Below, in pieces: positions 4,481 to 61,483 of a stretch of 64,000 bases of DNA (the stretch's first letter is position 1; every line of letters starts with the position of its first letter). The notes below the pieces were generated by a model. That model was not told the origin of the DNA, did no database searches, and worked only from the letters and a program-made list of their open reading frames with translations. Made by a program: the position numbers and the translations under genes. The DNA is from Deltaproteobacteria bacterium (GTDB lineage Bacteria; UBA10199; SPLOWO2-01-44-7): positions 24,537-88,536 of the forward strand of contig JAUSII010000122.1 in NCBI GenBank assembly GCA_030648035.1, given 5' to 3'.

Positions 4481-4493
4481 TCGCAATGACACT

Positions 4494-12358: not shown

Positions 12359-12431
12359 TGTCATTGCGAGGAGCGAAGCGACGTGGCAATCCCGATGATT
12401 ACCGGGATTGCGCAGCAATGCTCGCAATGAC
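12359..12431. repeat. GTCATTGCGAG nested-palindrome element, copy 2
   Basis: Same terminal inverted repeats and internal GGCAATCCCG/CGGGATTGC palindrome. Confidence 0.8.
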
Positions 12432-12432
12432 A

Positions 12433-14813: not shown

Positions 14814-14821
14814 ATTAATTT

Positions 14822-14893
14822 GTCATTGCGAGGCCCGAAGGGCCGTGGCAATCCCGTAGACGCCGGGATTGCTTCGCTTTGCTCGCAATGACA
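14822..14893. repeat. GTCATTGCGAG nested-palindrome element, copy 3
   Basis: Same architecture; sits between ligA and the phosphatase gene. Confidence 0.8.
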
Positions 14894-14906
14894 ATACGGT
14901 AATTTA

Positions 14907-15665: not shown

Positions 15666-15741
15666 GGTGGCTATAGTGTAAGGGTTAGCACAAGAGATTG
15701 TGGATCTCTTTGTACGGGTTCGAATCCCGTTAGCCACCCCA
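15666..15741 (+). tRNA. tRNA-His(GUG) with encoded G-1 and CCA
   Basis: Extra 5' G, acceptor GUGGCUA/UAGCCAC, discriminator C, anticodon loop UUGUGGA, T-loop UUCGAAU. Confidence 0.9.
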
Positions 15742-15776
15742 AAAGTGAAAAGTCAAGACTTGGACTTCACCCCTTT
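15742..15776 (+). repeat. 35-bp element AAAAGTGAAAAGTCAAGACTTGGACTTCACCCCTT (left IR of the tRNA-His cassette)
   Basis: Imperfect inverted copy at 18675-18706; related copies at 23608, 56866 and 58978. Confidence 0.7.
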
Positions 15777-16379
15777 ATGTGTGACTCCGATCTAATAAAA
15801 ATAGTTGTGACATCGTCGCTCACACTTTTTGCGACACTTTTTGTTGCATACTGTTCTCAACAATGGACTCTCAATGGTCAGAAGGAGCTAAAAGATAAAG
15901 AGGCGAGACAGCTCGCGTTTAGCGAGTTAATGGGTCTCAAGCTCATACGTCAACAGTTGTTCCTGAGTCGTTTTGAAGCTGTCGCCTATTCTGACTATCA
16001 CGAACAAAGATGGCAACTTCAAGGCGCCCAAAAGGATTCTCTGGATTTTTCAGAAGCAACCCGATGGCAACACAAGGCAGAAGATTTTGTCCAAGACATC
16101 TCAAGTAACACTGAAAAGCTCTTCAACGTTCTCGGCAGAATAACCATTCTCTTTCCAGCAACTCCAGAGATAGATCAATTGATTGAGAAACTCTATAGAT
16201 TTAAGACCCCAAAATTTAATGTAGAGGCAAAATCGATACAGGATTTGAAAAATCTAGAAGGCTGGAAGCTGGCTGTGACACTAGACCTGCAAAAGATAGT
16301 GGAGACCGAATACGGAAAGCCATTTGATGATTTGGTGACATACCTAAAACCCCAACTTCTTCAAAAGAACTGTAGATGA
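15777..16379 (+). CDS. hypothetical protein, N-terminal TM anchor (cassette gene 1)
   Basis: ORF begins immediately after the IR in low-GC DNA. Confidence 0.5.
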   Translation: MCDSDLIKIVVTSSLTLFATLFVAYCSQQWTLNGQKELKDKEARQLAFSELMGLKLIRQQLFLSRFEAVAYSDYHEQRWQLQGAQKDSLDFSEATRWQHKAEDFVQDISSNTEKLFNVLGRITILFPATPEIDQLIEKLYRFKTPKFNVEAKSIQDLKNLEGWKLAVTLDLQKIVETEYGKPFDDLVTYLKPQLLQKNCR

Positions 16380-16558
16380 GCGTTTTCGTAAAAAAACCAC
16401 CTCTAATGATAGAGTTCCAACTTATAACCCTCTTGATTATTCACAAAAGCAAGGCGGAACTTGTCAGTTCTCTACTGATTGCGGTATAGGGCAGAAATGC
16501 CTTAAGGAAAGTGGGCAGATATATGGTACATGCATATGAGGCCAACCATGAACGTGCG

Positions 16559-17926
16559 ATGTTTATCGTTAAGTTGACGATTCTTGTTTTCCTCATTATT
16601 CAATGCGTGCTTGCGTTTGGATGTGCTGGCAAACAGGTAGATTTAGTAACCGCTAAGTATACCAGCAATGACTATCCTCTTGAATATGACATAGGATTGG
16701 GAACGCTAATTTTAGAGAGGCAAAAGATTTTGAGTGGGGATAAAATTGATTCCAAAAGAAACCAGAAAAATTTAGCAGTACTTCAAGAAATAACCCAACG
16801 TCTTGCAAAGGTAAGTCATTATCCACAATTTCCGTATGAAGTTCATTTAGTTGATGCTGATGTTAATAATGCGTTCTGCGCTCCGTGCGGAAAAATTATA
16901 GTTTATGAAGGTCTATGGAATCCTTCGACTGGGTTAGTAGAACAAGGGAATAAGGCCCAACTCGCCGCTGTTTTGGCCCATGAAATTGCACATGCAAATG
17001 CACGACACGGCACAGAAGGTTTGACGCGTCATGATTGGATAAACGTATGGGTTTCTGGTTTGACAGGTGGCATTGCTGGAGCAACTGCTGGTACAAGTTA
17101 CGCAAGCTGGGGGCAATTACTCAACAGTGCTATTTCCGTTACTGGCGAAGCAATAATTCCAACTTATTCACGAAAAGATGAGCTTGAGGCGGATCAAATT
17201 GGCCTGATGTATATGGCACGGGCTGGTTATGACCCAAATGAAGCAGTTAAGTTGTGGGAAAAAGCAACAAGTGCAATGCATAATGATAAAAAAAGTGTTT
17301 TTGCTACGCATCCCACAGATGGCACACGTGCTTCAAAGCTCAAAGAACAAATGCCGTCAGCAATGTTGTACTACAATGATTCCAAAAAAGGAACGACGCC
17401 CGCAACCTATAAACTATTGGCCAACATCAATCCTGATATATACGATGTAAAACATGACTCCTGCAGTTTTAGATATAAGCAAATTGCATTGGTCGATAAC
17501 AAAAGCTACATTGCCACTCTCATGGATCATCTAAAGAGAAAAAAGAGTCAAACAAACGATCCTATTATGAAAAAAGAATTGCAAAATAGAATCGCCAATC
17601 TACAGAAGCACGGCCGCATAACTTTCTACCAAATCAATCCCAATTCCATTGGCGATGGGAAAAATGAATTTTATCAATATCCCGCTGATGACATTGAAAA
17701 TCCAATGTATGTTGAGATTCAGCCATCTGGAGAGGTGTTCTTATCGAGCGCCGCGGTGAGACCTCGCCATGTATGTAGAGGAATGCTGCCTAAACAATTT
17801 AATAGTCAGACAGAAAAGTTTCTTTGCACTTGGGACATTGACGGCAGAACTCCTATAAAATCCTTAAAGAGGTGTGAATTCTCTGTGCTTAGACGAGCAG
17901 CAATTGATAACAATGCAAAAAAATAA
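16559..17926 (+). CDS. M48-family Zn metallopeptidase (BepA/YcaL-like) lipoprotein with C-terminal extension
   Basis: HEIAH zinc site and downstream EADQIG motif; lipobox LAFGC. Start uncertain (16511 or 16559). Confidence 0.7.
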   Translation: MFIVKLTILVFLIIQCVLAFGCAGKQVDLVTAKYTSNDYPLEYDIGLGTLILERQKILSGDKIDSKRNQKNLAVLQEITQRLAKVSHYPQFPYEVHLVDADVNNAFCAPCGKIIVYEGLWNPSTGLVEQGNKAQLAAVLAHEIAHANARHGTEGLTRHDWINVWVSGLTGGIAGATAGTSYASWGQLLNSAISVTGEAIIPTYSRKDELEADQIGLMYMARAGYDPNEAVKLWEKATSAMHNDKKSVFATHPTDGTRASKLKEQMPSAMLYYNDSKKGTTPATYKLLANINPDIYDVKHDSCSFRYKQIALVDNKSYIATLMDHLKRKKSQTNDPIMKKELQNRIANLQKHGRITFYQINPNSIGDGKNEFYQYPADDIENPMYVEIQPSGEVFLSSAAVRPRHVCRGMLPKQFNSQTEKFLCTWDIDGRTPIKSLKRCEFSVLRRAAIDNNAKK

Positions 17927-18096
17927 AGAAAAAAGAGATCCACGGAGAAAGATAGGCCATCATTAAAACGACCATTTCACTACACCTTTCGTCCAAAATC
18001 CGTCGCTCATTTTTATAAAACCCCGTCACCACTCAATATAATCCATTTCACGGTTGGCATGCGGATTGCTTAGTCAACAGGCGGGAGGAAATTATT

Positions 18097-18603
18097 ATGA
18101 CAGATATTATTCCTGTGGAGCGTATTGAACAGACGATTCTTCTTGTTAGGGGACAGAAGGTCATTATGGATGTGGATTTGGCCATTCTCTACGGAGTTTC
18201 TACCAAACGACTTAATGAGCAGGTCAAACGCAATTTGGAACGTTTTCCCCACGATTTTATGTTTCAATTGAATTCGAGAGAAATGGATGAACTGGTCGCA
18301 AAATGCGACCGGTTCAAAAACCTGAAACATTCTACTGTATTGGCACATGTTTTTACCGAACATGGAGCGCTCATGTTGGCAAATCTCTTAAAAAGTCCGA
18401 TAGCGGTTCAAGCCAGCATTCATGTCGTTAGAACTTTCATTAAGCTACGAGAAATATTAGCCACCCACAAAGATCTTGCCCGCAAATTGGCCCAATTAGA
18501 AAAAACATATAATCATCAATTCAAGATGGTTTTTGAAGCGATTCGTCAATTAATGGAAACACCAACACCAAAGCCCAAGAATCCGATCGGATTTAGAAAG
18601 TGA
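18097..18603 (+). CDS. ORF6N-domain protein (phage antirepressor-like)
   Basis: N-terminal ...VRGQKVIMDVDLAILYGVSTKRLNEQVKRNLERFPHDFMFQL matches the ORF6N signature. Confidence 0.7.
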   Translation: MTDIIPVERIEQTILLVRGQKVIMDVDLAILYGVSTKRLNEQVKRNLERFPHDFMFQLNSREMDELVAKCDRFKNLKHSTVLAHVFTEHGALMLANLLKSPIAVQASIHVVRTFIKLREILATHKDLARKLAQLEKTYNHQFKMVFEAIRQLMETPTPKPKNPIGFRK

Positions 18604-18674
18604 ATCGCTATCTCTTCCGGGACAAGACCGGTTCTTGACAAGCCTGATTCGCTTATTTAGATTTCAGATGAAAG

Positions 18675-18706
18675 AAAAAGGGGTCAAGTTGGACTTTTCA
18701 CTTTTG
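18675..18706 (-). repeat. right IR of the tRNA-His cassette (inverted copy of the 35-bp element)
   Basis: Its reverse complement CAAAAGTGAAAAGTCCAACTTGACCCCTTTT matches 15742-15776. Confidence 0.65.
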
Positions 18707-18772
18707 AAATTCATCAGCTATGGACAGGAAAAAATTTAAAATTATTTTACGATGATGCCGGTTTTGTCCCCC

Positions 18773-18818
18773 TAAGGGATGCCCCCAGTCAAAAATCAGC
18801 AATGCCCTGATGGTCTCT
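18773..18818 (+). promoter_or_regulatory. regulon motif copy P8, degenerate (GCCCCCAGTCAAAAATC...TGCCCTGATGGT)
   Basis: Same orientation and spacing as the other copies; about 70 bp upstream of csbD-like 18887. Confidence 0.55.
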
Positions 18819-18886
18819 CGCTCGGTTTGTGTTATTTTTTAAAAATAAGTTCGTGCAAACCATTCAGTATTAACCAGGGAGGCATT

Positions 18887-19051
18887 ATGGCAGGAGAATT
18901 CGATAAAGCCAAAGGGCGCATTAAAAAAGCGGTCGGGGAGTTGATAGGGAATGACAAGTTGAAGCGCGAAGGTTCGATCGACAAGTTGTCGGGCAACATA
19001 AAATCAGGAGTGGATAAGGTCAAAAAAGTTTTGGAAGGAAAGAAAGTCTAA
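18887..19051 (+). CDS. CsbD-family general stress protein (54 aa)
   Basis: KAKGRIKKAVGELIGNDKLKREG...VDKVKKVL is a CsbD-like bipartite helical repeat. GGGAGG RBS present. Confidence 0.75.
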   Translation: MAGEFDKAKGRIKKAVGELIGNDKLKREGSIDKLSGNIKSGVDKVKKVLEGKKV

Positions 19052-19081
19052 TCAAGAGAATTGGTTTTTGTGTCGGCATGC

Positions 19082-19654
19082 TTAATGTTTACAGGTTATG
19101 TCTGGCTTGAAAACGTTTCCGCTCATGTGGATTTTGGTATGCAGGTCTTTGCCGTTTTTTGCCAAGAAATTAGCGAGGCCTTCTTCAAGATTGAGAAATG
19201 TTTTTTTTGCTTTTACCACCTTGCCGTCAAATAGCACTACGTCAACATCAACATCGATCTGGGTCGTCTGCACCCAACCTTTTGCCTGAATATTGGCCAT
19301 TCCCTCTATGGCAGTATACCCGCATATGAGGCTGATTTTCGGATTGAGCTCTGCCGCTGGAACACGGCTGATCTGAATTTTCTGAAAATCAAAGCGCAAT
19401 GGCAACAGCTGAAAAGTCCCTTTTGCCTCAAGAGGAGCACTTTTAGAGGAACCCTCAATGATGAACGAGATTTTTGCGAAGCCTGTGAGTTCTGTCTCCA
19501 CTTTTGTCAAATGAACGGAATAGGGGAAAAGAAAAAAATTCCCTCCCCACTTGATAAAAAAATTCCGAAATAAAAAAATAGAAAACAGGAGCAGACTGAC
19601 AACAGAAAAAACAGCAATGTAGGTTTTCATTTTCATTTTCATTTTCATTTTCAA
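19082..19654 (-). CDS. membrane-anchored hypothetical protein (possible LEA_2/WHy-like)
   Basis: N-terminal TM anchor. The 5' end is built from an (AAAATG)5 hexamer repeat encoding (MK)5. Confidence 0.5.
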   Translation of the reverse strand: MKMKMKMKMKTYIAVFSVVSLLLFSIFLFRNFFIKWGGNFFLFPYSVHLTKVETELTGFAKISFIIEGSSKSAPLEAKGTFQLLPLRFDFQKIQISRVPAAELNPKISLICGYTAIEGMANIQAKGWVQTTQIDVDVDVVLFDGKVVKAKKTFLNLEEGLANFLAKNGKDLHTKIHMSGNVFKPDITCKH

Positions 19655-19706
19655 ATTTTAAAGCTTCCAAAATCAAAGCCCACGTTAACCCCTTTGCCCG
19701 ATCCTG

Positions 19707-21551
19707 TTAAGGCCAAAGAACACTGACCCCTTTGGCTCTCAGGGCATCGATTTGGGAGGAGGGAATTTGGGGGTTACCTTCAAGACCTACAAGATCATCA
19801 CCGTGATCCAATCCACTATTGCTAATAAGAGGATTGATATCTGAAATTTGATTTTCAGTCAGGAGAAGTATGTGTAAATTAATAAGCGACGAGAGGGGAT
19901 TTAAATCTGATATTTGGTTCCCATTAAGAACAAGCGAATACATATTAGTAAGCGCTGAAAGAGGTGCCAAGTCTGATATCAGGTTTTCATGAAGGGTGAC
20001 TCCGGACAAATTAACGAGTGATGCGAGAGGAGACAGGTCTGATATTTGATTATTGTGAAGCACTAGCCCGCCCAAATGTGTGAGCGGCGAAAGAGGGCTG
20101 AGATCTGCAATCTGGTTGTGATCCATATCAATGTTGATCAAATGAATAAGCGATGAAAGGGGGGATATGTCCTGTATCAGATTGTAAGAAAGATAAAGCT
20201 CGGTAAAACTGGCACTGGTAAGCGACGCAAGTGGGCTTAAATCCGATATTTGATTTCTCATAAGACTAAGCCGACGCAAATGAACCAGTGGCAGAAATGA
20301 AAGTGGGGACAAATCTGATATTTGGTTTTCATCAAGGCTCAATTCATAGAGAAGATTAGCAAAACATTCCAAGCCTGACAAATCCTGGATGTGTTTCCCA
20401 TGTAAGCCAATCCACAAGCCTGCGCTTGTTCTGTTTAATGTATCTTGCAATGTGAGATCATCAGTCGGGCCTTTTTCTAAACCTTGTCTTATTGCATTCA
20501 AAAGATTGGAATCTGCAAATGCATCGGTGATAATACCATCTCCATCCGGATCACAGTGTGTTCTGATATTTTGAGGAACAGTACAAACAAACCCCTCGTC
20601 TATTGAGACATTACAGTTATCATCAATATCATTACAATCCTCAACAGCCCCCGGATTTATGTTACCGGCATTATCGTTGCAATCTCCCTCTACGTCGGTC
20701 CAGCCCGACGGATACTTCGAACTCGACAGGCTTGAGCAAACTTCAATGGAATCATTTAAACTTCCATAACCATCATTGTCTACGTCGTGATAAAGGCTCT
20801 TGAAATTGGTGCATTCCGGAGGACCTGCATCTTGATGCCCAGCGTCTGAATGCAAAACCGTTGCGCCAGCATCACGCGCCCCACCGTCCAAATGATCTTT
20901 CCCGCCATGCCATCCATCGACATCCATCTCATTATCGTTTTGACCATTCTGGGAAGGATATCCACAACCAAAAACAGCCATTGCTGAGGCCATTGCAACA
21001 TCACGCACACTCACTCCATTTTGATTCTCTGCCGTATACTTTCCTTTTGGTATCGTCCCTTCACCAAATTTGTAGAAATAGACGCCCGTAACACGGTGAA
21101 TATAATCTCTAAAACCTTCGTCCGATTTCCATCCAATGGATTGCGCAAACCATCCACTTTTTTGTGTTTTGGAATTTGTTATAGCTGGCTCTAAACTGTA
21201 AACATCATTTTTTGAGAATGATGCCAAAGCTCTGTGTTGATTATGGTCTACGGAGGACTTATTTTCCGGAGAACAAACACCTTTAATTGACCAGCCCATA
21301 TTATTAACCTTTCTCTTTCGCCACTCCGTGTAACCCCATACAGTAAGGGTTATCGTCGGTATAGCAAAAAAAGTTGCGTAAAGAGGACCATTAAAGTAGA
21401 GGGGTCCAACTTGGCCCCTTTTTCCGGTGCTTTTCACTCTCGTATCGGTGGCACTCACCGCTATTTTTCTGTATTCGCTATCTTGCTTATTTGGTAGTCT
21501 CCGTCTGATGTTTTTTATTTTCTCCAGGTTGTCTCTTCTTTTTTTGCTCAT
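19707..21551 (-). CDS. leucine-rich-repeat protein (internalin-like LRRs), signal-anchored
   Basis: At least 8 tandem 22-aa LRRs (LxxLxLxxNQISDLSPL) and an Asp-rich middle region. Confidence 0.8.
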   Translation of the reverse strand: MSKKRRDNLEKIKNIRRRLPNKQDSEYRKIAVSATDTRVKSTGKRGQVGPLYFNGPLYATFFAIPTITLTVWGYTEWRKRKVNNMGWSIKGVCSPENKSSVDHNQHRALASFSKNDVYSLEPAITNSKTQKSGWFAQSIGWKSDEGFRDYIHRVTGVYFYKFGEGTIPKGKYTAENQNGVSVRDVAMASAMAVFGCGYPSQNGQNDNEMDVDGWHGGKDHLDGGARDAGATVLHSDAGHQDAGPPECTNFKSLYHDVDNDGYGSLNDSIEVCSSLSSSKYPSGWTDVEGDCNDNAGNINPGAVEDCNDIDDNCNVSIDEGFVCTVPQNIRTHCDPDGDGIITDAFADSNLLNAIRQGLEKGPTDDLTLQDTLNRTSAGLWIGLHGKHIQDLSGLECFANLLYELSLDENQISDLSPLSFLPLVHLRRLSLMRNQISDLSPLASLTSASFTELYLSYNLIQDISPLSSLIHLINIDMDHNQIADLSPLSPLTHLGGLVLHNNQISDLSPLASLVNLSGVTLHENLISDLAPLSALTNMYSLVLNGNQISDLNPLSSLINLHILLLTENQISDINPLISNSGLDHGDDLVGLEGNPQIPSSQIDALRAKGVSVLWP

Positions 21552-23604
21552 CAGCCCGTTTCTTTTTTCGCCCGCCTCTTTAGCCCAAACGGATATGAGT
21601 CATTATTATGACGACACACAGAAACAGATGCAAAAGTCGGCCGAGGTCATCAACAAAATGGCGCAACAGCAGCAGCAAATGATGCAGAAATTGATGAACA
21701 CACCTCAAATGAAAAAAATGTCACAGAAAATGATGAAAGAGGGGGAAAAATATCATAACAATATGTTGGATGAATGGGATGTCGTGGTGCGTATGAACCT
21801 GCGATATTATCTGGAGCGCCACGACAGCGTCCAGTCAGATGGAAAAACGACACGCACCGACAGCCATGTTCTGTTGGAGGCCCAGCGTGACTTTAACGGA
21901 AAATTAATCAAGGCCTACACCCTCAACAAAAAGCATCCCGAAAAATATGAGTATGAGATAAATGGGCTCACCAGCGAAAAAGCCGATGTGAAAAAAGTGG
22001 CGTATGATTTGGCGATGCGCACTTCACCCAATGGGGGCCAGTCTCATTGTCACGGTGAAGCATGGAGCCAAGATCCCGGCTCAATTAGCGCAAAGCCTCT
22101 TGCAACAACAGAAAGCGCGGACAAAAGATATCACATCCATCTGGACGCCGGCATCACCATGGAAAGCCAAGACTGTTTTGCCTATCCGGTCCCTTATTTT
22201 AAAGCGGATCTTCTCCTCTCTAAAGACGATTTAGATGCCTTGATAAAAAAAGGATATTGGGAAAAAACATTTGATCAAAAATATCTTGCCGATGTGAACG
22301 CTGTGATCGGCGGTGCAGGTTGGCCCGGCGCGCCGCTTTACAGTCTGGTTTTGCTCGATCCGCAAAAATCCGGAAATTATCGGGACACACAGGTTCATAT
22401 CGAAATATTATTATCGCCGCGCATCAAGGGCCCGCATTTTGCCGCTTTCCCCAAGCAGACCCTCCACTTGCTCGATAATTATGTGACTCTCAAGGCGGAG
22501 TCGGTGCCGGGTTGGCAGGTGAGCGATATTAAACCAAAGGAAGGTTGGGCGGTCGCTTCAAAATATGTGAGAAAAGTTCCGGGGGCCAGCTCTTCCGGTT
22601 CCACTCTTCAATTAGCGCCATTAGCGCCGGGCAAAATTCATTTCGAAGTTGACTGGACAAGCCCCACCGGAAAAAAGGGAAAGAGTGATCCATTTGAATT
22701 TACGGTCGTGCAGCTCGAATTCAAAAAAGAGGGAAATTGCAACGGCTTTGATGATGTGGAATCGGATCCGGTGCCGACAGCCTCCATTTGCGTGGGTAAA
22801 GACAAAAATGTTTTACTGGAGGCCCTGCCAAGGGGTGTGCAAGTCGAGACCCGATTAGAAGCCGCTGATAGAAACGCCTTTCAGATAACGCCGCAAACGG
22901 TTCCCGGTTTTTCAGCTGAGCCGCAAAAAATCACGCTTCAGGGAATCAGCCCCAAACAAGATTCTACACTGACGGCCAAAATCAAAATCGGTGACGATGA
23001 TGAAGAATATCAGGTGGCTGCACAAATTATCACCGACACCCTCAAAATGCGTGATATCAAAGTGCTCCCATTTTTTCTCGATTCCGACCCACTGTCTTTG
23101 GTGCCACCCAGAATCAACGATATGTTCAATCAGGCTAAAACAGATTTGAAGCAGGCTTGTGTGACGCTCGATGTTCTACCAACCGAAACCCTCAAACCAA
23201 AAGAGGTTCCCAGTTATTTAGGCGGCGCCTCGATCCGTTATGATTTGGAAAACTGGAAACCTCTGGTCGATTATTCCCGCAAACTGGCAAATCACAAAGA
23301 TCAGGAGCTGACTGTTTTTATTGTCCCTCTCATTGTGACGCAAAAAGTGGATGCAAAAGGAAATATGACTCAAGACATAAATCCATTGGGTTTTCAAAAT
23401 GCCGACTATGTTTTTGTTTCGGAAGCGAGTTTTCCCCAACATATTCACGTTCTGGGGCACGAAATCGGCCACTATATTTTTAAAGATATGTATGTCTCAC
23501 TGGAGGGGTCAACCCACACCGATTTTTCCGATATGCTGATGTATCATACCAGCTCTAAAAAGTGTGAAATCCACCATGAGGAATGGCGCAATATTTCCCG
23601 TTAA
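21508..23604 (+). CDS. secreted hypothetical protein with C-terminal HExxH motif (putative Zn-metalloprotease)
   Basis: Signal peptide ...SPASLA|QTD; HVLGHEIGHYIF near the C-terminus. Start uncertain; divergent overlap with the LRR gene. Confidence 0.55.
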   Translation: MFFIFSRLSLLFLLISPFLFSPASLAQTDMSHYYDDTQKQMQKSAEVINKMAQQQQQMMQKLMNTPQMKKMSQKMMKEGEKYHNNMLDEWDVVVRMNLRYYLERHDSVQSDGKTTRTDSHVLLEAQRDFNGKLIKAYTLNKKHPEKYEYEINGLTSEKADVKKVAYDLAMRTSPNGGQSHCHGEAWSQDPGSISAKPLATTESADKRYHIHLDAGITMESQDCFAYPVPYFKADLLLSKDDLDALIKKGYWEKTFDQKYLADVNAVIGGAGWPGAPLYSLVLLDPQKSGNYRDTQVHIEILLSPRIKGPHFAAFPKQTLHLLDNYVTLKAESVPGWQVSDIKPKEGWAVASKYVRKVPGASSSGSTLQLAPLAPGKIHFEVDWTSPTGKKGKSDPFEFTVVQLEFKKEGNCNGFDDVESDPVPTASICVGKDKNVLLEALPRGVQVETRLEAADRNAFQITPQTVPGFSAEPQKITLQGISPKQDSTLTAKIKIGDDDEEYQVAAQIITDTLKMRDIKVLPFFLDSDPLSLVPPRINDMFNQAKTDLKQACVTLDVLPTETLKPKEVPSYLGGASIRYDLENWKPLVDYSRKLANHKDQELTVFIVPLIVTQKVDAKGNMTQDINPLGFQNADYVFVSEASFPQHIHVLGHEIGHYIFKDMYVSLEGSTHTDFSDMLMYHTSSKKCEIHHEEWRNISR

Positions 23605-23607
23605 GAT

Positions 23608-23632
23608 CAGGGGCCAAGTCTTGACTTTTCTT
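23608..23632 (-). repeat. solitary copy of the 35-bp element (CCAAGTCTTGACTTTTC)
   Basis: Exact reverse complement of GAAAAGTCAAGACTTGG from 15749-15765. Confidence 0.6.
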
Positions 23633-24080
23633 ATGGAAGGCGCGACATCATTTTCTGGCCAATCCGGATTATTTTTTCGTCACTGCAGGGTATCAGCATA
23701 CAGCTGACATTCACGCAAACGGGACCTTTAATCAAAAATAGAGACCCTTTGTCAGGCACAAGAAAGGAACCCTTGCCAAGACTGGGAACCATTTTGAAGT
23801 CTTGATAAGGACTCGGCTTACAAGATTCTGCGGGATCAAACAAAATGGTCAAAGCCCCTTTTTTATCGACAGTGCCAAGGGTGTATTCACAACCAATGGT
23901 CTGTATTTCCCATTGGCCGCCAAAATCGGCTACAGCATCTTGTTTCGTATACGGCAGTCCTCCGGAAGCGGTTCTGTATGGAGCGCAAGAATTACTCTCC
24001 GCCCCCCGAGCTTCCTGGAATTGTGAATACATCACACAGCAGACGATGAACAATAACGATACAACAATTTTTTGAACCAT
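23631..24080 (-). CDS. secreted hypothetical protein (149 aa)
   Basis: Signal peptide and 7 Cys. Confidence 0.5.
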   Translation of the reverse strand: MVQKIVVSLLFIVCCVMYSQFQEARGAESNSCAPYRTASGGLPYTKQDAVADFGGQWEIQTIGCEYTLGTVDKKGALTILFDPAESCKPSPYQDFKMVPSLGKGSFLVPDKGSLFLIKGPVCVNVSCMLIPCSDEKIIRIGQKMMSRLP

Positions 24081-34989: not shown

Positions 34990-35007
34990 GTGTCTTCGCG
35001 TCATCTT

Positions 35008-35044
35008 ACTCCCCCCCCTTTGAAAAAGGGGGGTTAGGGGGGGA
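35008..35044. repeat. G/C-tract palindrome (C8TTTGAAAAAG6-type), copy R1
   Basis: CCCCCCCCTTTGAAAAAGGGGGG; related to the copies at 35236, 35679 and 37472. Confidence 0.7.
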
Positions 35045-35053
35045 TTTAATCTC

Positions 35054-35305
35054 ATGCTCGAATACGATGCCAATTTGAAAAAATACTCACGACTACTTAG
35101 AAACAAAATGACAGATAGTGAGCGCAAGCTGTGGTCTCGGCTTCGCAAAAAACAGATTTTAACCGTGTTGCGTTTTGACAATTTAAAGGTGTTGCAAGAG
35201 ATGGATGGAGTCATGAGAACGGTTGGCGGGAGAAAATCCCCCCTGCCCCCCCTTTTTCAAAGGGGGGGAATAAAATGCACACACACTACCGGTCTCTTTT
35301 TATAA
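35054..35305 (+). pseudogene. truncated DUF559 (Vsr-like endonuclease domain) gene fragment
   Basis: N-terminus LLRNKMTDSERKLWSRLRKKQ matches the DUF559 N-terminus. The frame then runs into the G/C-tract palindrome (translated PLPPLFQRGG) with no catalytic half. Confidence 0.5.
35236..35290. repeat. G/C-tract palindrome CCCCCCCTTTTTCAAAGGGGGGG + AATGCACACAC tail, copy R2
   Basis: Shares the palindrome and the AATGCACAC(A/G)C tail with R3 and R4. Confidence 0.7.
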
Positions 35306-35567: not shown

Positions 35568-35678
35568 AATTCTGAAATCCTCTTTTTACAAAACTTTACA
35601 ATATATTTTATAAGTTAATGTATTTCATGTGTTTTTAAGACTGAATGTCAGGATGACTCCGTAGGGCACATTTTTGAA

Positions 35679-35725
35679 TTCCCCCCCTTTTTCAAAGGGG
35701 GGAGTAAAAAGTAAAATGCACACTC
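35679..35725. repeat. G/C-tract palindrome copy R3, flanked by a 40-bp direct repeat (35627-35672 / 35738-35783)
   Basis: CCCCCCCTTTTTCAAAGGGGGGAGTAAAAAGTAAAATGCACAC; the flanking direct repeat is TTTTTAAGA..GTCAGGATGACTCCGT.GGG.A. Confidence 0.7.
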
Positions 35726-37471: not shown

Positions 37472-37522
37472 ATCCCCCCTTACCCCCCTTTTTCAAAGGG
37501 GGGAGTGAAATGCACACGCATT
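37472..37522. repeat. G/C-tract palindrome copy R4
   Basis: CCCCCCTTTTTCAAAGGGGGGAGTGAAATGCACACGC. Confidence 0.7.
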
Positions 37523-43068: not shown

Positions 43069-43218
43069 CTTCTTGTGTTATGCGCCTTTCATCGGAACAA
43101 TGACAAGTCTTCACTTCAGTCTACACCCTGATGGACTGACCTGTAACCCTTTTATTTTCTTATTTCCATGAGGGAAAACCGTATTTTCAAATGGGGGAAT
43201 CCCCCAGAGTTTGGGCAT

Positions 43219-43292
43219 TGTCATTGCGAGCGCAGCGAAGCAATCCCGTTGATCATCGGGATTGCCACGGCCCCTTCGGGGCCTCGCAATGA
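43219..43292. repeat. GTCATTGCGAG nested-palindrome element, copy 4 (with adjacent half-motif GGAATCCCCCAG at 43193-43215)
   Basis: Full element with terminal inverted repeats. Its 3' flank CTTTGTCAACAAACTCTTAAG + P2 is duplicated at 46770-46858. Confidence 0.8.
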
Positions 43293-43313
43293 CACTTTGT
43301 CAACAAACTCTTA

Positions 43314-47521: not shown

Positions 47522-47809
47522 ATGTCCAACAACGACGGTACCATGAATCAGCACGCTTCAGATTTTCGCAAGAAGGCATCCACTCTGGGTCGTGATGTTG
47601 AAGACCTCGGTTCCATCACCAAAGAGTTGGCTGGTGCTGCAGTTGACAAGTTGCAGGAGAATGCGGGCGAGTATTATGATCAGGGAATGAAAAAGGCCAA
47701 GCTTTTTGAAAGAGGTCTTGAGAAAAAGATCAGCTCAAATCCGCTGATGTCTCTTCTGATCGCCGCAGGTGTCGGCCTGGTCGCAGGGGCCCTTTTTAAT
47801 CGCCGATAA
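47522..47809 (+). CDS. ElaB/YqjD/DUF883-family stress-induced membrane-anchored protein
   Basis: Helical N-region plus a C-terminal anchor NPLMSLLIAAGVGLVAGALFNRR, typical of DUF883. Confidence 0.7.
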   Translation: MSNNDGTMNQHASDFRKKASTLGRDVEDLGSITKELAGAAVDKLQENAGEYYDQGMKKAKLFERGLEKKISSNPLMSLLIAAGVGLVAGALFNRR

Positions 47810-47810
47810 A

Positions 47811-48233
47811 ATGCGCCAACTTTTATCAAATATGAGTCTGGGAATCCTGGCCGTCGCTGTGGCGGCCGGGATTCTTTTGATTTCTGTTTTCTTTCTGATG
47901 TATGGGGCCGCAACTGGCCTGGGAACAGTCTTTGTGGACAAGCCCTGGTTGGGTTGGGTCATCACAGGCGGGGTCTTTCTTTCAGGCCCGATTCTGTTTT
48001 TCACAATTCATTTTTCAAAACCAAAAAAGAAGCCGGCAGATTTTTCAAAAACAAGCGAGGCCCTTCTGCAACAAATTCTGGATGCCACAAGAAAGCATCC
48101 TTTGCAATCCACCGGTGCCGCGGCGGCCGCAGGCTTCATGGTTGGTGGAAAAGAGCCCTCCGAGATCACGCATGCCTTGAAAGAAGCCCTGATCCCGATT
48201 CTGGTGGAATACATCCAATCCAGACAAAAATAA
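47811..48233 (+). CDS. YqjE-like small inner-membrane protein (2 TM)
   Basis: Starts 1 nt after the ElaB-like stop; two hydrophobic helices. Order mirrors E. coli yqjD-yqjE. Confidence 0.45.
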   Translation: MRQLLSNMSLGILAVAVAAGILLISVFFLMYGAATGLGTVFVDKPWLGWVITGGVFLSGPILFFTIHFSKPKKKPADFSKTSEALLQQILDATRKHPLQSTGAAAAAGFMVGGKEPSEITHALKEALIPILVEYIQSRQK

Positions 48234-55806: not shown

Positions 55807-56724
55807 ATGATAAGCGGCGGAAACGAAGAGGGCATTAAACGAGCAGCGGTACAAGTCTGGTGCAGTGGATTTCTTGCGGATTACAACAGCGACAAAGATG
55901 AGACGGGTTGTCCGGCGTCTGTTGAGAGAGAACTCACATGGGCCTACACACAAATCAAAGACCCTCTGCAACGGGACAAACTCGATGCATTTCTCAAAAT
56001 CTGGATAGGACAGCCGATGGAAAATTGCGGAAGTGAATCGGGCGCGGAGGAGAGCGGCTACAATGACACGACAGCTCCTGCCGCCACCAAATGTATGGAT
56101 GAATACAGATTGGGCACGCGGAGGAGAATTCAACTCAAAAATTTAAGTTTGCCAGGGATGCCCACCAAAGTGAAAGCCTTTGGGGAGAATGGATATGTAC
56201 CGTGGGCGGTGAAGATGGTGCAGATGGGATATATTCCGAAAGAGCCATGTCCTCTTGTGGAGCTTGCCGATAATCGGGTGAAGCGCGCCATGGCCCGACT
56301 GGGAGCGGCCGCCAGCATGAAGTTCAATGGACCACACATCCCCGCAGTTATTTACGGGCTTCAGGTAGAGGCGCCACAACTTTTCTGGCAGTCTAGTGAT
56401 GCCGGATGGGCGGCGGGGGGTCGTTTGATGGCAGGAGGTATAAGTCGATTGCAGGATCACGCCGAAAATGACCAGACAACCGGGTTTGTCAAAGCCGGAG
56501 TGGGTCCTGAATATGCAATTTTCAGGGACGACAATGTGAGCATCAGCACAGCCCTTGCAAGCGTCATGACCTTCAATGGGAGTGAAGACCTGGGAGGCGG
56601 TGGAGAATTGGGTTTGCGAGTCGACACCAATAAGCGGGCGGGCGTAGGCTTGGACTTCATCCTCGAATATATACAGGGAGAGTTGCTTCCCATGGGTGGC
56701 GCCTATCTTTATTGGGGGTTTTAA
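55807..56724 (+). CDS. hypothetical protein ending ...GGAYLYWGF (possible outer-membrane-targeting C-terminus)
   Basis: ORF with GGAG RBS; terminal aromatic-F. The last 75 bp are duplicated at 58998-59072. Confidence 0.5.
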   Translation: MISGGNEEGIKRAAVQVWCSGFLADYNSDKDETGCPASVERELTWAYTQIKDPLQRDKLDAFLKIWIGQPMENCGSESGAEESGYNDTTAPAATKCMDEYRLGTRRRIQLKNLSLPGMPTKVKAFGENGYVPWAVKMVQMGYIPKEPCPLVELADNRVKRAMARLGAAASMKFNGPHIPAVIYGLQVEAPQLFWQSSDAGWAAGGRLMAGGISRLQDHAENDQTTGFVKAGVGPEYAIFRDDNVSISTALASVMTFNGSEDLGGGGELGLRVDTNKRAGVGLDFILEYIQGELLPMGGAYLYWGF

Positions 56725-56744
56725 CATAAGAAAAAGGGGGCATT

Positions 56745-56852
56745 ATGAATCTAAAATCAGAAGAAGGAAAAATAGGGTATGTTCTTGCATGGCTTATCGG
56801 TATTCCTATTCCGATATTGATTATCGTCTTCCTCTTGCGCGGATGTAGTTAA
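56745..56852 (+). CDS. possible 35-aa small hydrophobic membrane peptide (MNLKSEEGKIGYVLAWLIGIPIPILIIVFLLRGCS)
   Basis: GGGGG RBS 7 nt upstream and a single TM. Below the ORF-track length cut-off, so speculative. Confidence 0.3.
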   Translation: MNLKSEEGKIGYVLAWLIGIPIPILIIVFLLRGCS

Positions 56853-56865
56853 TTTTTTTTAGAGT

Positions 56866-56893
56866 CTTCAAAAGTGAAAAATCAAGACTTGAG
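56866..56893 (+). repeat. 35-bp element copy D (AAAAGTGAAAAATCAAGACTTGAGC), left boundary of the second cassette
   Basis: Same family as the copy at 15742; inverted partner at 58978-59006. Confidence 0.6.
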
Positions 56894-57084
56894 CAAATTA
56901 ATTATTTTATGGGGATGCGGGATAGTGGTTTTACCGGGTTCATCTGTATGGGCTTGCCCGTTATGTTATTCGGATACAGGCAAACAAGTGCGCGCGGGAA
57001 TCTTTAATGGCGATTTTTTATTTAACCTTGCCATGACGCTTTTTCCCTTTATCGTTTTCACGTTCATAGGCTTGGTGCTTTATT

Positions 57085-57579
57085 ATGATGAATCTAAAAA
57101 CAAAAAATAATTTTAAACCTTTAATCACGGCTGGTACGATCTTAGGCTTGGGGATGGGTGGTTTTGTCGATGGCATTCTTTTTCATCAGATTCTTCAGCT
57201 TCATAGCATGCTTTCCAATCGTCTTTTTCCAGATACGCTGATTAATGTTGAGATCAACATGTTTTGGGATGGGCTTTTTCATGCCTTTACTTGGATCATG
57301 ACATTGATCGGACTTGCTTTGCTCTGGAAAGCAGTCAGACGTGTTGACGTGCCTAAATCAACAAAAATTCTCGTCGGTTCCATGCTTTTTGGATGGGGCC
57401 TGTTCAATTTAGTCGAAGGCATTATTGATCATCAGCTTCTCCAAGTGCACCATGTGGTGCAACGGGCCGCTCAGCCCGCGCAACTGTATTGGGATTTATT
57501 ATTCTTGGCCGCAGGCATTGTGCTGATCGTACTAGGGCGTGTGTTAATTCAATCTGGCAGAAAAGCGGCGCCTCTGTAG
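57085..57579 (+). CDS. DUF2243-family integral membrane protein
   Basis: GGFVDGILFHQILQLH motif and 4 TM helices. Confidence 0.65.
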   Translation: MMNLKTKNNFKPLITAGTILGLGMGGFVDGILFHQILQLHSMLSNRLFPDTLINVEINMFWDGLFHAFTWIMTLIGLALLWKAVRRVDVPKSTKILVGSMLFGWGLFNLVEGIIDHQLLQVHHVVQRAAQPAQLYWDLLFLAAGIVLIVLGRVLIQSGRKAAPL

Positions 57580-57597
57580 CCTTCTAAAGGGGTCATC

Positions 57598-58962
57598 ATG
57601 TCTATTTGGTTTCGAATCCGTTGGTTGCTTGTTGTATTGCTCGCCGTAGCGCTTGTTGGTTTTGCGCTGACGGTGAAAAGTGCCAATGAAGATTTTCCTG
57701 CGCTGACAAAACGCCTGCAAGCGGAGAAACCGAAGTTCGCCAAGCGCCAACAGACTTTGCTCACAGAGCGCTACGATCTTACTGACCGGCCAGCTAAGGA
57801 AATGGTCATGTCGCGCGGTAAACCGGTGCAAGAGGGAGTGCGCGTTAAGTTGCCCGAGGGGATGACGTGGGAGAAACTAGCCGCGTTGTCACCGGAACTA
57901 ATCAAAGAAAAACAACTCTGGCCGGCTGGCTTTCTTCCGTTGCCGCATCCCCACCACGAAGTGGGCGGAATGATCTTTCCTAAATTTCTCATCGAAGTAA
58001 CGAAGCAACAAACCGATCGGGATCTGACTCGTTTCGATCTCGACTTCGATTTGCCGGATTATTTATTGCCCGAGTTTCCGGCACCGATCTATCTGACGAC
58101 GCGGCTCGATCTGGGTGACGTCTCGCAAGGGAAATTGGTGACGCTCAACAACTTCAATGAATTATTCAAAGACATCCTCAATCCTAAGCAACTCGAAGGC
58201 CTGCGGTTGCTGGTCACGCCGTTTCCCCAGCAACAGTTCAATGCCACAGAAGATCGTCGCAGTTTGAAAGCCCATCAGGGTGTTGCTTGTTTCGATTGTC
58301 ACGCCAATGGCCATACGAACGCCTCTACCCACACAGTCGGAGATATTCGGCCAAACGAACTTCGTCATCGGATTGATACGCCATCACTACGGGGTGTGAA
58401 CATTCAACGCTTGTTTGGTTCGCAACGGGCACTCAAGTCGGTGGAGGACTTCACCGAGTTCGAACAACGAGGTGCCTATTTCGATGGCATCCCGGCCGAT
58501 GCAACGCGCAAAGGGACCAATGTCCTTGAACGCGGCAGTCAGGTGCATTTTATGGCAGAGTTTCAGGCTTTGCTCGATTTTCCGCCTGCGCCGAAGCTCA
58601 ACGTCTTGGGCAAACTCAATCCCAGCAAAGCCAGCGTGATCGAGTTGCGCGGCCAGGACATTTTTTTTGGAAAGGGTCAGTGCGCGGCCTGTCACACTCC
58701 GCCGTACTACACCGACAATTTGATGCACAACTTGCAGGTGGAGCGATTCTTCCCGGAGGTCACGATGAATGGTCGTAAGGCTTCGGTCGACGGCCCGATC
58801 AAGACTTTCCCATTGCGTGGCATCAAAGATTCGCCGCCATATTTGCACGACGACCGTTTGCTGACGCTGGAGGATACGGTGGAGTTTTTCAACCTCATTC
58901 TAGAATTAAAATTGAGTGTTCAAGAGAAGAAAGATTTGCTCGTCTTTCTCTGGGCACTTTAG
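57598..58962 (+). CDS. di-haem cytochrome c peroxidase/MauG-like protein
   Basis: Signal-anchor N-terminus and two CxxCH haem sites (CFDCH, CAACH) about 140 aa apart. Confidence 0.55.
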   Translation: MSIWFRIRWLLVVLLAVALVGFALTVKSANEDFPALTKRLQAEKPKFAKRQQTLLTERYDLTDRPAKEMVMSRGKPVQEGVRVKLPEGMTWEKLAALSPELIKEKQLWPAGFLPLPHPHHEVGGMIFPKFLIEVTKQQTDRDLTRFDLDFDLPDYLLPEFPAPIYLTTRLDLGDVSQGKLVTLNNFNELFKDILNPKQLEGLRLLVTPFPQQQFNATEDRRSLKAHQGVACFDCHANGHTNASTHTVGDIRPNELRHRIDTPSLRGVNIQRLFGSQRALKSVEDFTEFEQRGAYFDGIPADATRKGTNVLERGSQVHFMAEFQALLDFPPAPKLNVLGKLNPSKASVIELRGQDIFFGKGQCAACHTPPYYTDNLMHNLQVERFFPEVTMNGRKASVDGPIKTFPLRGIKDSPPYLHDDRLLTLEDTVEFFNLILELKLSVQEKKDLLVFLWAL

Positions 58963-58977
58963 TGCATTAGTGAAAAT

Positions 58978-59006
58978 TAAAAAGAAAAGGGGTCAAGTTG
59001 GACTTC
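58978..59006 (-). repeat. 35-bp element copy E (inverted), right boundary of the second cassette, fused to a 75-bp duplicate of 56650-56724
   Basis: AAAAGGGGTCAAGTTGGACTTCATCC; the downstream 58998-59072 is 74/75 identical to the 3' end of gene 55807-56724. Confidence 0.65.
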
Positions 59007-59093
59007 ATCCTCGAATATATACAGGGAGAGATGCTTCCCATGGGTGGCGCCTATCTTTATTGGGGGTTTTAAAACATTTTGTTCACCTGCTCT

Positions 59094-59477
59094 TTATTTT
59101 TTCTTACCTTCCAGAAGTGCTTTTATTTTAGAGAGAAGAGAATAAATTTCGTAGGGCTTGGTAATATACTCATCTGCCCCGCATTCTTTTCCCCAGGTTT
59201 TGTCGCTCTCCTGTGTTTTTGCGGTCAATAGAATCACCGGGATCGATTTTGTTTTGGGATCATTTTTCAAGTCGTGGCAAACTTGGTAGCCATTCATTTT
59301 GGGCATGATGACATCGAGCAAAATAAGATCGGGTTTTTCCTGCATGGCCCTTTCTATTCCTTTTGGGCCGTTATAAGCGACCAGAACGGAATATCCGGAG
59401 GCTTTCAATCGGATGCCCAATTCTTCCGACAGATCTTTTTCATCATCAACCAATAATATTGTTTTTTTCTGATTCAT
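59094..59477 (-). CDS. single-domain CheY-like response regulator
   Basis: ILLVDDEKD...LILLDVIMPKMNG...LLTAK; 127 aa. Its start overlaps the HK stop by 32 nt. Confidence 0.8.
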   Translation of the reverse strand: MNQKKTILLVDDEKDLSEELGIRLKASGYSVLVAYNGPKGIERAMQEKPDLILLDVIMPKMNGYQVCHDLKNDPKTKSIPVILLTAKTQESDKTWGKECGADEYITKPYEIYSLLSKIKALLEGKKK

Positions 59478-60660
59478 TTTTTCTCCTTTTCCCCGCAATG
59501 GGGAGTGTAAAACGAAATGTAACACCTGTTTTTTCAGGACTCTCCACCCATATTTTCCCCCGGTGGCGTTCAATAATTTCTTTGCAGATGGCCAACCCCA
59601 ATCCTGTTCCTTTGTAGGGCCCCGTCCGTTTTTCCCGATCGAGCTGGATAAATTTTTTGAACAGGTCATCCATTTTTTGACGGGGAATGCCGGGACCGTC
59701 ATTGGCAATGCTGATTTCAATGAATTGGGGAGAGCCACTCTCCGGCTTGGCGATAGTTGTTGCAACCACGATTTCTTTTTTGGCATAGAGAATGGCGTTG
59801 CTGAACAGGTTTGTCAAAGCCTGCGCCACCATATCCGAATCAGCTTCAACGGTAGGCAGGTCTTTTTTGTGTTTTTCTTTTATTTTGAGGTTCCTTCCCC
59901 TTTTCCCGCCCTGATAGCTTTGAACGATTTCATGAATAAGCGGGGTAAGATGAATCTCCTTTTGCTGAATTTTTGTCCTTCCTGATTCCAGACGGGAGAG
60001 ATCGAGCAAATTTTCAATCAGTTTGGACAATCGTCTGACATTTCTCTGCCCCCGGTCCAAAGCCTCGGCCTGTGCTTCAGAAATGGGGCCCAGGATTCCC
60101 GATTTAAGATTGTCTATTCCAAGTGCAATCACCGTGAGCGGCGTGCGCAGTTCATGGGAAACCATGCTCAAGAATTCATCTTTCATCTTTTCGAGCTTTT
60201 TTCGCTCGGTGATATCTTCAATGGCCAGGAGGATTGTCTTCTTCTTGTCCGTTTTTCTGTAAATGCGTCTGGCGTTCAAAAGCATTGTTTTCAACCCAAT
60301 GGTTTTGAAGTTGTGCTCCACTTCGTAATCCTCAAAAGTGGTATGCTTGGGAAGAATTTCTTCCAGGAGCTGTCGCAGTTTGGGGATATTCCACTGCCGG
60401 TTGCCCAGATGATAAAGAAACTTTCCCTCGGTCTCATGTGGCTTGACTTTAAAAGTCTTATAGAAGGAGCGATTGGCGGAGATGATCTTCAGGTTGGTAT
60501 TGAGCACGATCAAGGGTTCCCGCACCGTCTCCACAATATTTTCGGCATATTCACGGGCGGCCCTGATAATTTCCTGAACTTTTTTTTGCTTGGTTATTTC
60601 CCGTTTGGTCGACTTTGCTGAATGACTCATAAGGTGATTCTCCCATATAGAAATTCTCAC
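59446..60660 (-). CDS. PAS-domain sensor histidine kinase
   Basis: PAS domain, H-box MVSHELRTPL, N-box and G-box GTGLGLAICK. Confidence 0.85.
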   Translation of the reverse strand: MRISIWENHLMSHSAKSTKREITKQKKVQEIIRAAREYAENIVETVREPLIVLNTNLKIISANRSFYKTFKVKPHETEGKFLYHLGNRQWNIPKLRQLLEEILPKHTTFEDYEVEHNFKTIGLKTMLLNARRIYRKTDKKKTILLAIEDITERKKLEKMKDEFLSMVSHELRTPLTVIALGIDNLKSGILGPISEAQAEALDRGQRNVRRLSKLIENLLDLSRLESGRTKIQQKEIHLTPLIHEIVQSYQGGKRGRNLKIKEKHKKDLPTVEADSDMVAQALTNLFSNAILYAKKEIVVATTIAKPESGSPQFIEISIANDGPGIPRQKMDDLFKKFIQLDREKRTGPYKGTGLGLAICKEIIERHRGKIWVESPEKTGVTFRFTLPIAGKRRKNESEKNNIIG

Positions 60661-60809: not shown

Positions 60810-61037
60810 ATGAATTGGGAACAGATAGAAGGGAACTGGAAACAGTTTAAAGGTGATGTAAGAGAAAAGTGGGGCAAGCTGACAAATGATGAGCTGGATG
60901 TCATCGCAGGCAGAAAAGACAGACTCGCCGGAAAACTTCAGGAAAAATACGGCATTGCAAAGGAAGAAGTGGAAAAGCAACTTCATGATTTTTTAAAATC
61001 TTCCCAGGAAATGAAAAAGAAGGGGGCAAACGTATGA
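60810..61037 (+). CDS. CsbD-family general stress protein (75 aa)
   Basis: KQFKGDVREKWGKLTNDELDVIAGRKDRLAGKLQEKYG matches the CsbD signature. Confidence 0.8.
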   Translation: MNWEQIEGNWKQFKGDVREKWGKLTNDELDVIAGRKDRLAGKLQEKYGIAKEEVEKQLHDFLKSSQEMKKKGANV

Positions 61038-61483
61038 ACAAGCGCTCCATTATTTCAAAAACGATCTTGCTCGCCAGTTTTGCCGTTTTTTTTCTCGGCA
61101 GTGCTGCGGCAAGGGCGTCCGAAACGCAATGCAAAATGAATTTCACGATGAAAAGCTGGTCGGTCTTTTATAAATCGGGCAAAGGCCAGGGGAACATTAC
61201 CTGCGATAACGGTCAGAAGGCCAAAGTGCGTCTGCGGGCACACGGTGGGGGCCTGACTTTTGGAAAAGACAAGATTCTGGATGGTCACGGAACCTTTTCC
61301 AAAACTGCGGATATCAAAGATTTGTTTGGATCTTATGCGACAGCTGAAACCCATGGCGGCGCTGGAGACTCTGGAGCCTCCCAGGCTATGACAAAAGGAG
61401 ATGTATCTCTTGCCTTAACAGGTTCTGGAAAAGGTGTTAGTGTGGGTATCGATTTTGGAAGTTTCAAAATCTCAAAGATTTAA
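61034..61483 (+). CDS. secreted hypothetical protein (149 aa)
   Basis: Signal peptide; ATGA overlap with csbD-like, suggesting an operon. Confidence 0.5.
   Translation: MNKRSIISKTILLASFAVFFLGSAAARASETQCKMNFTMKSWSVFYKSGKGQGNITCDNGQKAKVRLRAHGGGLTFGKDKILDGHGTFSKTADIKDLFGSYATAETHGGAGDSGASQAMTKGDVSLALTGSGKGVSVGIDFGSFKISKI

Follow-up and report, generated by a model that had tools for sequence, protein, structure and literature searches.

The window analysed here is the whole 64,000-nucleotide (nt) stretch of the 99.5-kb contig JAUSII010000122.1, from a Deltaproteobacteria-labelled metagenome-assembled genome (MAG). Its subject is the 3' end of gene305 (Q7T03_10335), which codes for a hypothetical protein of 305 amino acids (aa). 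The last 75 nt of this gene recur on the far side of a 2.27-kb block of open reading frames (ORFs), and two members of a family of 35-bp elements lie at the inner borders of the block. The structure is real and non-random. The novel point is the state of the two flanking elements: each is one half of an element broken at its centre, the two halves complement each other, and they belong to a family whose six copies alternate in orientation. The features of the locus were placed as follows:

55807-56724, + strand: gene305, the intact 305-aa target gene (Q7T03_10335, hypothetical protein; ORF list)
56650-56724, + strand: copy 1 of the 75-nt repeat, the copy in use, comprising the last 24 codons and the stop codon of gene305 (alignment)
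56746-56850, + strand: 34-codon ORF for a small hydrophobic protein, with AAAAAGGGGG in front, part of the inserted DNA (read from the sequence)
56869-56891, + strand: half element D, outer half and centre (CAAAAGTGAAAAATCAAGACTTG; alignment)
56889-57110, + strand: ORF78, small membrane protein of 73-78 aa with a signal peptide and a CPLC motif (translation)
57085-57579, + strand: gene for a DUF2243 membrane protein (Pfam PF10002, E = 1.4e-50)
57598-58962, + strand: gene for a di-haem cytochrome c peroxidase/MauG-like protein of 454 aa (NCBI name 'cytochrome B6'; two CxxCH motifs)
58978-59005, - strand: half element E, inner half and centre (AAAAGAAAAGGGGTCAAG on the + strand; alignment)
58998-59072, + strand: copy 2 of the 75-nt repeat, the orphan gene end (alignment)
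59094-59477, - strand: response-regulator gene, convergent with copy 2 (21 nt from stop codon to stop codon)
59446-60660, - strand: histidine kinase gene, next to the response-regulator gene

The duplicated gene end and the block

An earlier note on this DNA had described a 75-bp duplication of the gene end with one mismatch, and this was confirmed by alignment of 56650-56724 with 58998-59072 (74/75 identity; 2273 bp between the copies). The sole mismatch, T at 56683 in copy 1 and A at 59031 in copy 2, divides the repeat into exact stretches of 33 and 41 nt. When the repeat was compared with the window by BLAST, the other copy was recovered with E = 1e-36, and the next best match was 12 nt long. 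The borders of the repeat are sharp: identity runs from TTGGAC to the TAA stop codon of ORF 55807-56724, and beyond the stop codon the contexts of the copies diverge (CATAAG after copy 1 vs AACATT after copy 2). No ORF leads into copy 2, which is preceded by an in-frame TGA 27 nt upstream, at 58971.

Two homologues of gene305 besides itself, both 65-66% identical, were found among 5.8 billion proteins. The 24 C-terminal residues are the best conserved part of the protein (18 invariant columns among the three homologues including gene305), which indicates why the gene end must be preserved. The variable codon is TTG (Leu) in copy 1 and in both homologues, and ATG (Met) in the orphan copy 2. One substitution does not settle which copy is the original, and the derived residue in the orphan would fit either origin. 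At one homologous locus (L001) the upstream synteny is kept and different genes follow downstream; at the other (L002) the downstream genes also differ, and neither locus holds an insert. These differing downstream genes fit a variable spot after gene305. The uninterrupted 56724|59073 junction was not found at L001 and L002, the sole homologous loci, which at 65-66% protein identity are too distant to serve as an empty site. In the window, genes for a thrombospondin-repeat protein, an OmpA-family protein and a 367-aa protein precede gene305; the response-regulator gene beyond copy 2, next to that for the histidine kinase, is its probable original neighbour.

The earlier note had placed a small Cys-containing membrane ORF, a DUF2243 protein and a di-haem peroxidase-like gene between the elements. 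All three were borne out by the CPLC motif, the Pfam match and the CxxCH motifs, and the contents were extended by the 34-codon ORF (56746-56850), which lies between copy 1 and the left element. The 141-bp stretch around this ORF (56725-56865) has a guanine-plus-cytosine (GC) content of 0.355, and the ORF matched no family. The four ORFs of the insert are tightly packed (intergenic gaps of 21, 38 and 18 nt), ORF78 and the DUF2243 gene overlapping. The start of the 34-codon ORF (ATGAATCTAAAATCAGAA, 56742-56762) matches that of the DUF2243 gene (ATGAATCTAAAAACAAAA, 57085-57105) at 18 of 21 positions; this likeness may be due to chance, or may be the trace of an earlier joint.

The closest relatives of the DUF2243 protein (84% and 80% identical) are located in other genomic contexts. 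Over 56930-57549, the ORF78-DUF2243 pair has ~80% nt identity to two loci, L130 and L131, the latter from a relative. L131 has homologues of the genes located at 47.5-50.0 kb in the window, as well as a 49-nt upstream motif, described below. Immediately after its ORF78-DUF2243 pair come the homologues of genes 47522-48233, and neither the peroxidase-like gene nor the elements are present. The 35-bp elements were not found in the other DUF2243 contexts (L130-L133). For the peroxidase-like protein, more than 8000 homologues were obtained, the best 120 of them at 81-89% identity; those with a named source come from many phyla (82-88% identity), and matches to MauG/MbnH-type families were weak. 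Its gene was not preceded by a DUF2243 gene in any of the three other contigs examined, where the neighbours are unrelated small genes. To judge from these sequence comparisons, the cargo of the insert is a mosaic, foreign or relocated. Two further observations concern the peroxidase-like gene elsewhere. In L003 (1-17365) it belongs to a series of over 25 small unrelated genes with almost all members on the same strand, which resembles an integron cassette array, and in L006 it is followed by a palindrome ending in GTTAGGC.

The element family, its joints and other repeats

With an nhmmer profile built from the copies, six matches of 13-31 bits were obtained in the window, all else scoring below 9 bits; on 0.9 Mb of unrelated DNA the best score of the same profile was below 10 bits. 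The sequence AAAAGTGAAAAGTCAAGACTTG is present at 15741 and 56870, and AAAGGGGTCAAGTTGGACTT is exact at 18677 and 58986 and present with three mismatches at 21402 (0.00 expected in shuffles in either case). The elements that had been claimed at 56866 and 58978 are therefore real, as members of a six-copy family, located by the profile at:

15741-15778, + strand: element A, directly after tRNA-His (15667-15741)
18669-18705, - strand: element B, the most complete copy (30.7 bits)
21393-21429, + strand: element F
23599-23635, - strand: element C
56870-56909, + strand: element D (profile match; 35-bp extent 56866-56900)
58978-59012, - strand: element E

The orientation of the six copies alternates strictly (+ - + - + -; chance 1 in 32). 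In each element a near-palindromic centre separates the outer from the inner half; the consensus (orientation of A) is CAAAAGTGAAAAGTC[C]AA[GA]CTTG[AG]CCCCTTTTTC, and the centre differs in length between copies (CAAGTTGGAC vs CAAGTCTTGAC). Elements A and B have 15/15 nt of the outer half in common, inverted, and D/E and F/C are likewise inverted. Three blocks are thus bracketed by + / - element pairs: A..B, which holds a 200-aa ORF, an M48 peptidase and an ORF6N protein; F..C, which holds a 725-aa secreted protein; and D..E. The family that borders the insert at gene305 also flanks another block, beside tRNA-His. The stretch from A to C (15741-23635) holds 4/6 elements and has a GC content of 0.41-0.46 (0.50-0.52 in housekeeping genes); with its genes for ORF6N (KilA-N-like), M48 peptidase, CsbD and leucine-rich repeat proteins it looks like a genomic island without an integrase. 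An RNA family search of the window returned three tRNAs only. The only sign of the family outside the source MAG is an element copy with 28 consecutive nt identical to E, found on a 1.3-kb Joint Genome Institute contig (Ga0182022_1188747), together with a second, diverged copy ~30 nt away in the opposite orientation (792-824 and 855-885, upstream of a lipoprotein gene). A scan of a collection of genome contigs with an 18-nt AT-rich pattern of the outer half gave chance matches only.

Other readings of the elements were tried and rejected. As hairpins, terminators or repetitive extragenic palindromic (REP) sequences they fold no better than shuffles, and a scan for consensus terminators and promoters was empty there. 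As extracytoplasmic function (ECF), sigma-70 or sigma-54 promoters, the six copies showed on inspection no consistent -10 at a fixed distance. As starts of small peptides (Shine-Dalgarno-like AAAGGGG followed by TTG), they are followed by short ORFs that vary in length and sequence.

As a flanking pair, D and E proved to be of the same real family; they are nevertheless two different truncated halves, each fused to unrelated DNA, so that the block is not a simple cassette with intact ends. In D, element identity extends up to ...GACT and is followed by native ORF78 sequence from (A)TGAGCAAATT, as in L130 and L131; the final TTG of the half element doubles as the ORF78 start codon. The homologues begin with ATG AGC AAA TTA (L131) and ATG AGC AAA TTT (L130), and the sequences upstream of ORF78 at these loci are unrelated to the window. 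Since the native 5' end of ORF78 is kept from TG AGC AAA TT onward, the element centre replaces the A of the start codon, giving TTG. The joint falls at codons 1-2, where only TG is common to both partners.

Past its inner half and centre, E runs into the gene305 sequence TTGGACTTCATCC..., where B instead has TTGGACTTTTCACTTTTGAA. The element had been described as directly fused to copy 2; fusion was found, and was refined to an overlap of 8 nt, TTGGACTT, common to the element and gene305. The dyad centre, GTCAAG|TTGGAC, forms the left border of copy 2, and both joints (D and E) fall within the same central ~6 nt of the element. The 8-mer TTGGACTT occurs 10 times in the window, and gene305 and the insert have 37 other 8-mers and six 9-mers in common; with these available, microhomology alone does not explain a joint at the element centre. 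At its start (TTGGACTTCATCC, 13 nt), the repeat agrees with TTGGACTTCACCC within element A at 12/13 positions (3 matches in the window vs 0.13 expected). This starting sequence is native to gene305, because L002 has GACTTCATCCTCGAA at the same place. An att core is not supported for the 75 nt as a whole; only the first 8-13 nt resemble the element. A single inversion that yields both halves was also considered and rejected: it needs the reverse complement of the repeat directly upstream of ORF78, which is not seen in L130 and L131.

Further repeats lie elsewhere in the window. A motif of ~49 nt, ...AATCCCCCAGTCAAAAATC-N8-CCCCCGATTGT, is found on the + strand at 18766, 32983, 43305, 46797, 47374, 48230, 49973 and 60673, and in L131 at ~135, 1656, 4087 and 6337. 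It stands upstream of + strand genes, with the start codon 77-130 nt beyond the motif start at 6/8 sites; the exceptions are 18766, where it overlaps the CsbD start, and 60673, from which ~360 nt separate the next + strand gene. Among the products of these genes are several secreted immunoglobulin-like, ice-binding-like or repeat proteins, and the motif is a candidate promoter or leader of this lineage. A separate repeat family, TGTCATTGCGAGG...GGGATTGC, occurs in both orientations at 4409-4501, 12382-12432, 14811-14895 and 43217-43294 (arms of 23-59 nt with 84-94% complementarity). Palindromes of the CCCCCCCTTTTTCAAAGGGGGG type lie at 35006-35047, 35233-35271, 35678-35707 and 37474-37510, around DUF4325 and response-regulator/kinase genes. 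An inverted similarity of 71 nt (79% complementary) between 19649-19719 and 61406-61476 probably represents the ends of the paralogous small genes 19082-19654 (- strand) and 61034-61483 (+ strand).

Origin of the duplication

The layout of the locus (gene intact, its end repeated as an orphan past the insert, identity up to the stop codon) is well supported as that of a single-crossover insertion. As its cause, we tentatively favour the Campbell-type entry of a module that already contained a copy of the gene end, with the break at the element centre made by a recombinase encoded elsewhere and copy 2 left as the displaced orphan. By this route the 2.27-kb block (34-codon ORF, ORF78, DUF2243 and peroxidase-like genes) would have entered at the 3' end of gene305 by a single crossover, on DNA that also contained those last 75 nt. 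From then on gene305 would read through one copy and stay intact, and the other copy would stand orphaned beyond the insert, beside the convergent response-regulator gene. The orphan would stem from a joint at the dyad centre of a ~35-bp element. The elements would serve as sites for the recombinase, encoded elsewhere in the genome, which would break and rejoin them in the central (A/C)CTTG and would at times use look-alike secondary sites, here TTGGACTTCATCC inside gene305 and the start codon of ORF78; the candidate gene305 site is TTGGACTTCATCCTCGAA. The joint at the element centre, taken together with the other element broken at the same place with almost no common sequence, points to a site-specific recombinase. 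What we infer here is insertion rather than deletion, a circular intermediate, the involvement of a recombinase, the original copy and the order of events.

Several results weigh against this insertion by a recombinase. All ORFs of at least 90 aa from the window were compared with Pfam and partly with NCBIfam, and no integrase, resolvase, invertase, transposase or HUH enzyme was found in the 64 kb. This agrees with the earlier note, according to which no recombinase is retained in the insert. Neither a xerC or xerD gene nor a cognate insertion sequence (IS) or intI was found within the window. No second genome with an empty site or a circular form was found in the collections searched. At blocks A..B and F..C there is no flanking duplication (direct repeats not above shuffled background). 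The elements form no stable hairpin (-1.1 to -6.5 kcal/mol; z from -1.4 to +0.9 vs shuffles), they match no known site family among Rfam and dif-like patterns, and, apart from those on the Joint Genome Institute contig, every copy is from one MAG contig. The likeness of the repeat to the outer half is weak past the first 8-13 nt (p ~0.05 as the best of six comparisons, using the first 16 nt of the repeat). Finally, D and E are mutually inverted and fused to different partners, so that they are not two products of one simple integration and at least two events are required.

The absence of a recombinase from the window is accounted for by homology-facilitated illegitimate recombination, which is a rather unlikely origin on the whole. 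Here, DNA of a sister strain (gene305 plus the block) would have paired with gene305 as its homologous anchor, while the other end was joined inside the gene 3' end via the chance microhomology TTGGACTT; no site-specific recombinase would be involved, and the elements would be bystanders. The segment from the joint to the end of homology is duplicated in such an event, and one uptake event suffices. An anchor gene, a duplicate that ends where the genomes diverge and an 8-nt microhomology are the expected footprint, without any att site, and such a footprint is known from transformation work in Acinetobacter and pneumococci. The ten occurrences of TTGGACTT in the window also speak for chance microhomology. 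Yet 37 equal and six longer common words were available, and the joint nevertheless lies at the exact element centre; D is also broken at its centre, with only 2 nt in common; and the required donor strain, in which the block starts exactly after the stop codon, was not observed. The site-specific integration into the gene 3' end proposed in the earlier note is partly supported: the anatomy of a single-crossover insertion stands, and the att site does not follow from it, since microhomology recombination gives the same footprint.

The insertion by a recombinase may also be part of something wider, although this extension is speculative and we consider it doubtful. In an as yet undescribed chromosomal module-shuffling system, with the six elements as its sites, a recombinase encoded elsewhere would swap half sites at the CAAG(N0-2)CTTG centre, the sites being kept alternating as are pdif sites, and would capture genes via look-alikes at a start codon or a gene 3' end, the 75-nt duplication being the scar of such a capture.

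An integrase-bearing element that has decayed is an unlikely source of the block. Its attP would have contained the gene 3' end, like that of e14 or phage 21 at icd, and deletion would have reduced it to 2.3 kb, the 35-bp elements being arm- or core-type sites of the lost integrase. The intact gene reading into the insert and the orphan end opposite have the same layout as icd / e14 / icdC (PMC13626634), and identity that stops at the stop codon is as expected with selection on the coding part alone. The four ORFs, with their gaps of 21, 38 and 18 nt, include no integrase remnant, however; elements lie at four other places without a gene-end duplication, and the left element runs into a cargo gene at its start codon instead of occupying an arm region.

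Quite improbable is the remnant of a segmental duplication, by which gene305 once stood on both sides of the block and a deletion from the element centre to TTGGACTT left its last 75 nt. Deletions between short direct repeats are common, and the derived change sits in the orphan copy, as for a decaying pseudogene. Against this, the duplication boundary would have to fall exactly at the stop codon, with the deletion following later; no other trace of a second gene305 was detected in the window (75 nt only, by repeat BLAST and profile searches); and 74/75 identity implies that both events were very recent.

A chimeric contig of two strains joined through the repeat, conceivable for a sequence from a MAG, is scarcely credible, as the longest exact repeat stretches are 33 and 41 nt, both repeat copies have unique flanks, and the joint between element and copy 2 has only 8 nt in common with any complete element, so that a k-mer graph would not be expected to make it without reads containing it.

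If the elements are recombination sites, the locus would be a dated, base-resolved example, from an uncultured lineage, of gene modules assembled and relocated without the help of a resident recombinase, with the 3' end of a protein gene as the landing site and the gene kept intact. The two hybrid joints would then mark the exchange point and give a motif for finding the enzyme and further modules. If microhomology is the cause, the locus is an ordinary insertion scar.

Comparison with known systems

Mobile insertion cassettes (MICs), such as MIC231 of Bacillus cereus, carry passenger genes without a transposase between ~35-bp inverted repeats. Terminal inverted repeats are a likeness to IS-derived cassettes of this kind and to miniature inverted-repeat transposable elements. 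Unlike these, none of the three blocks is flanked by a target-site duplication, and the ends D and E are complementary halves rather than two full ends. The 38-bp ends of Tn3-type transposons have GGAAAA...TAAG as an internal pattern; ends of this type starting with GGGG were considered and rejected, as the elements contain no internal GGAAAA...TAAG and their orientation does not fit. The elements also differ from REP sequences and bacterial interspersed mosaic elements (BIMEs) in that they lack a stable imperfect hairpin.

Two features recall integron cassettes: the left border of copy 2, G|TTGGAC, fits the core GTTRRRY with exchange after G, and the peroxidase-like gene is found elsewhere in a long run of small unrelated genes on the same strand. 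Unlike attC sites, the elements are ~35 nt long and are not folded palindromes of 57-141 nt with R''/R'; their orientation alternates, and integron insertion duplicates no 75 nt.

For the duplicated gene end, the closest known case is e14/phage 21 at icd of E. coli, where the insert also lies in the 3' end of a protein gene, with a near-identical replacement end and an orphan fragment (icdC) opposite (PMC13626634). e14 is a 15.1-kb prophage that is excised on SOS induction by site-specific recombination (PMC13626634, citing Hill et al. 1989, PMC210168). As in e14, direct repeats of the target 3' end (75 nt, 74/75) flank the insert at gene305 and the gene is intact, and a crossover between the repeat copies would excise the insert exactly. 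In contrast to e14, the insert is 2.3 kb long, its inner borders are halves of a repeated element present at four other places, and no integrase was found in the 64 kb (ORFs of at least 90 aa). As this defining integrase was not found, the locus is not classed as a member of the e14 type.

For modules that lack a recombinase and lie between alternating inverted sites, the closest known case is that of the dif modules of Acinetobacter plasmids. These are gene modules of a few kb that lack a recombinase of their own and depend on one encoded elsewhere for movement; their borders are short asymmetric pdif (XerC/XerD) sites of alternating orientation, and hybrid sites arise from half-site exchange at the spacer (PMC13141974, PMC6449649). 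The blocks in the window are likewise bounded by inversely oriented, alternating sites (six copies, + - + - + -). The differences are that the present elements are chromosomal, in a Deltaproteobacteria-labelled MAG, that their centre varies in length, and that dif modules duplicate no gene end. In addition, the 28-bp dif layout (XerC arm, 6-nt spacer, XerD arm) does not coincide with the elements: a dif-like pattern (at most 3 mismatches) occurs in the window only at 23110 and 62249, not above chance and with no element there, and none of the six elements has a dif-like XerD arm. With a site sequence that is unrelated and no recombinase gene found in the window, the elements at gene305 are not a member of the dif-module system, although they may work like it.

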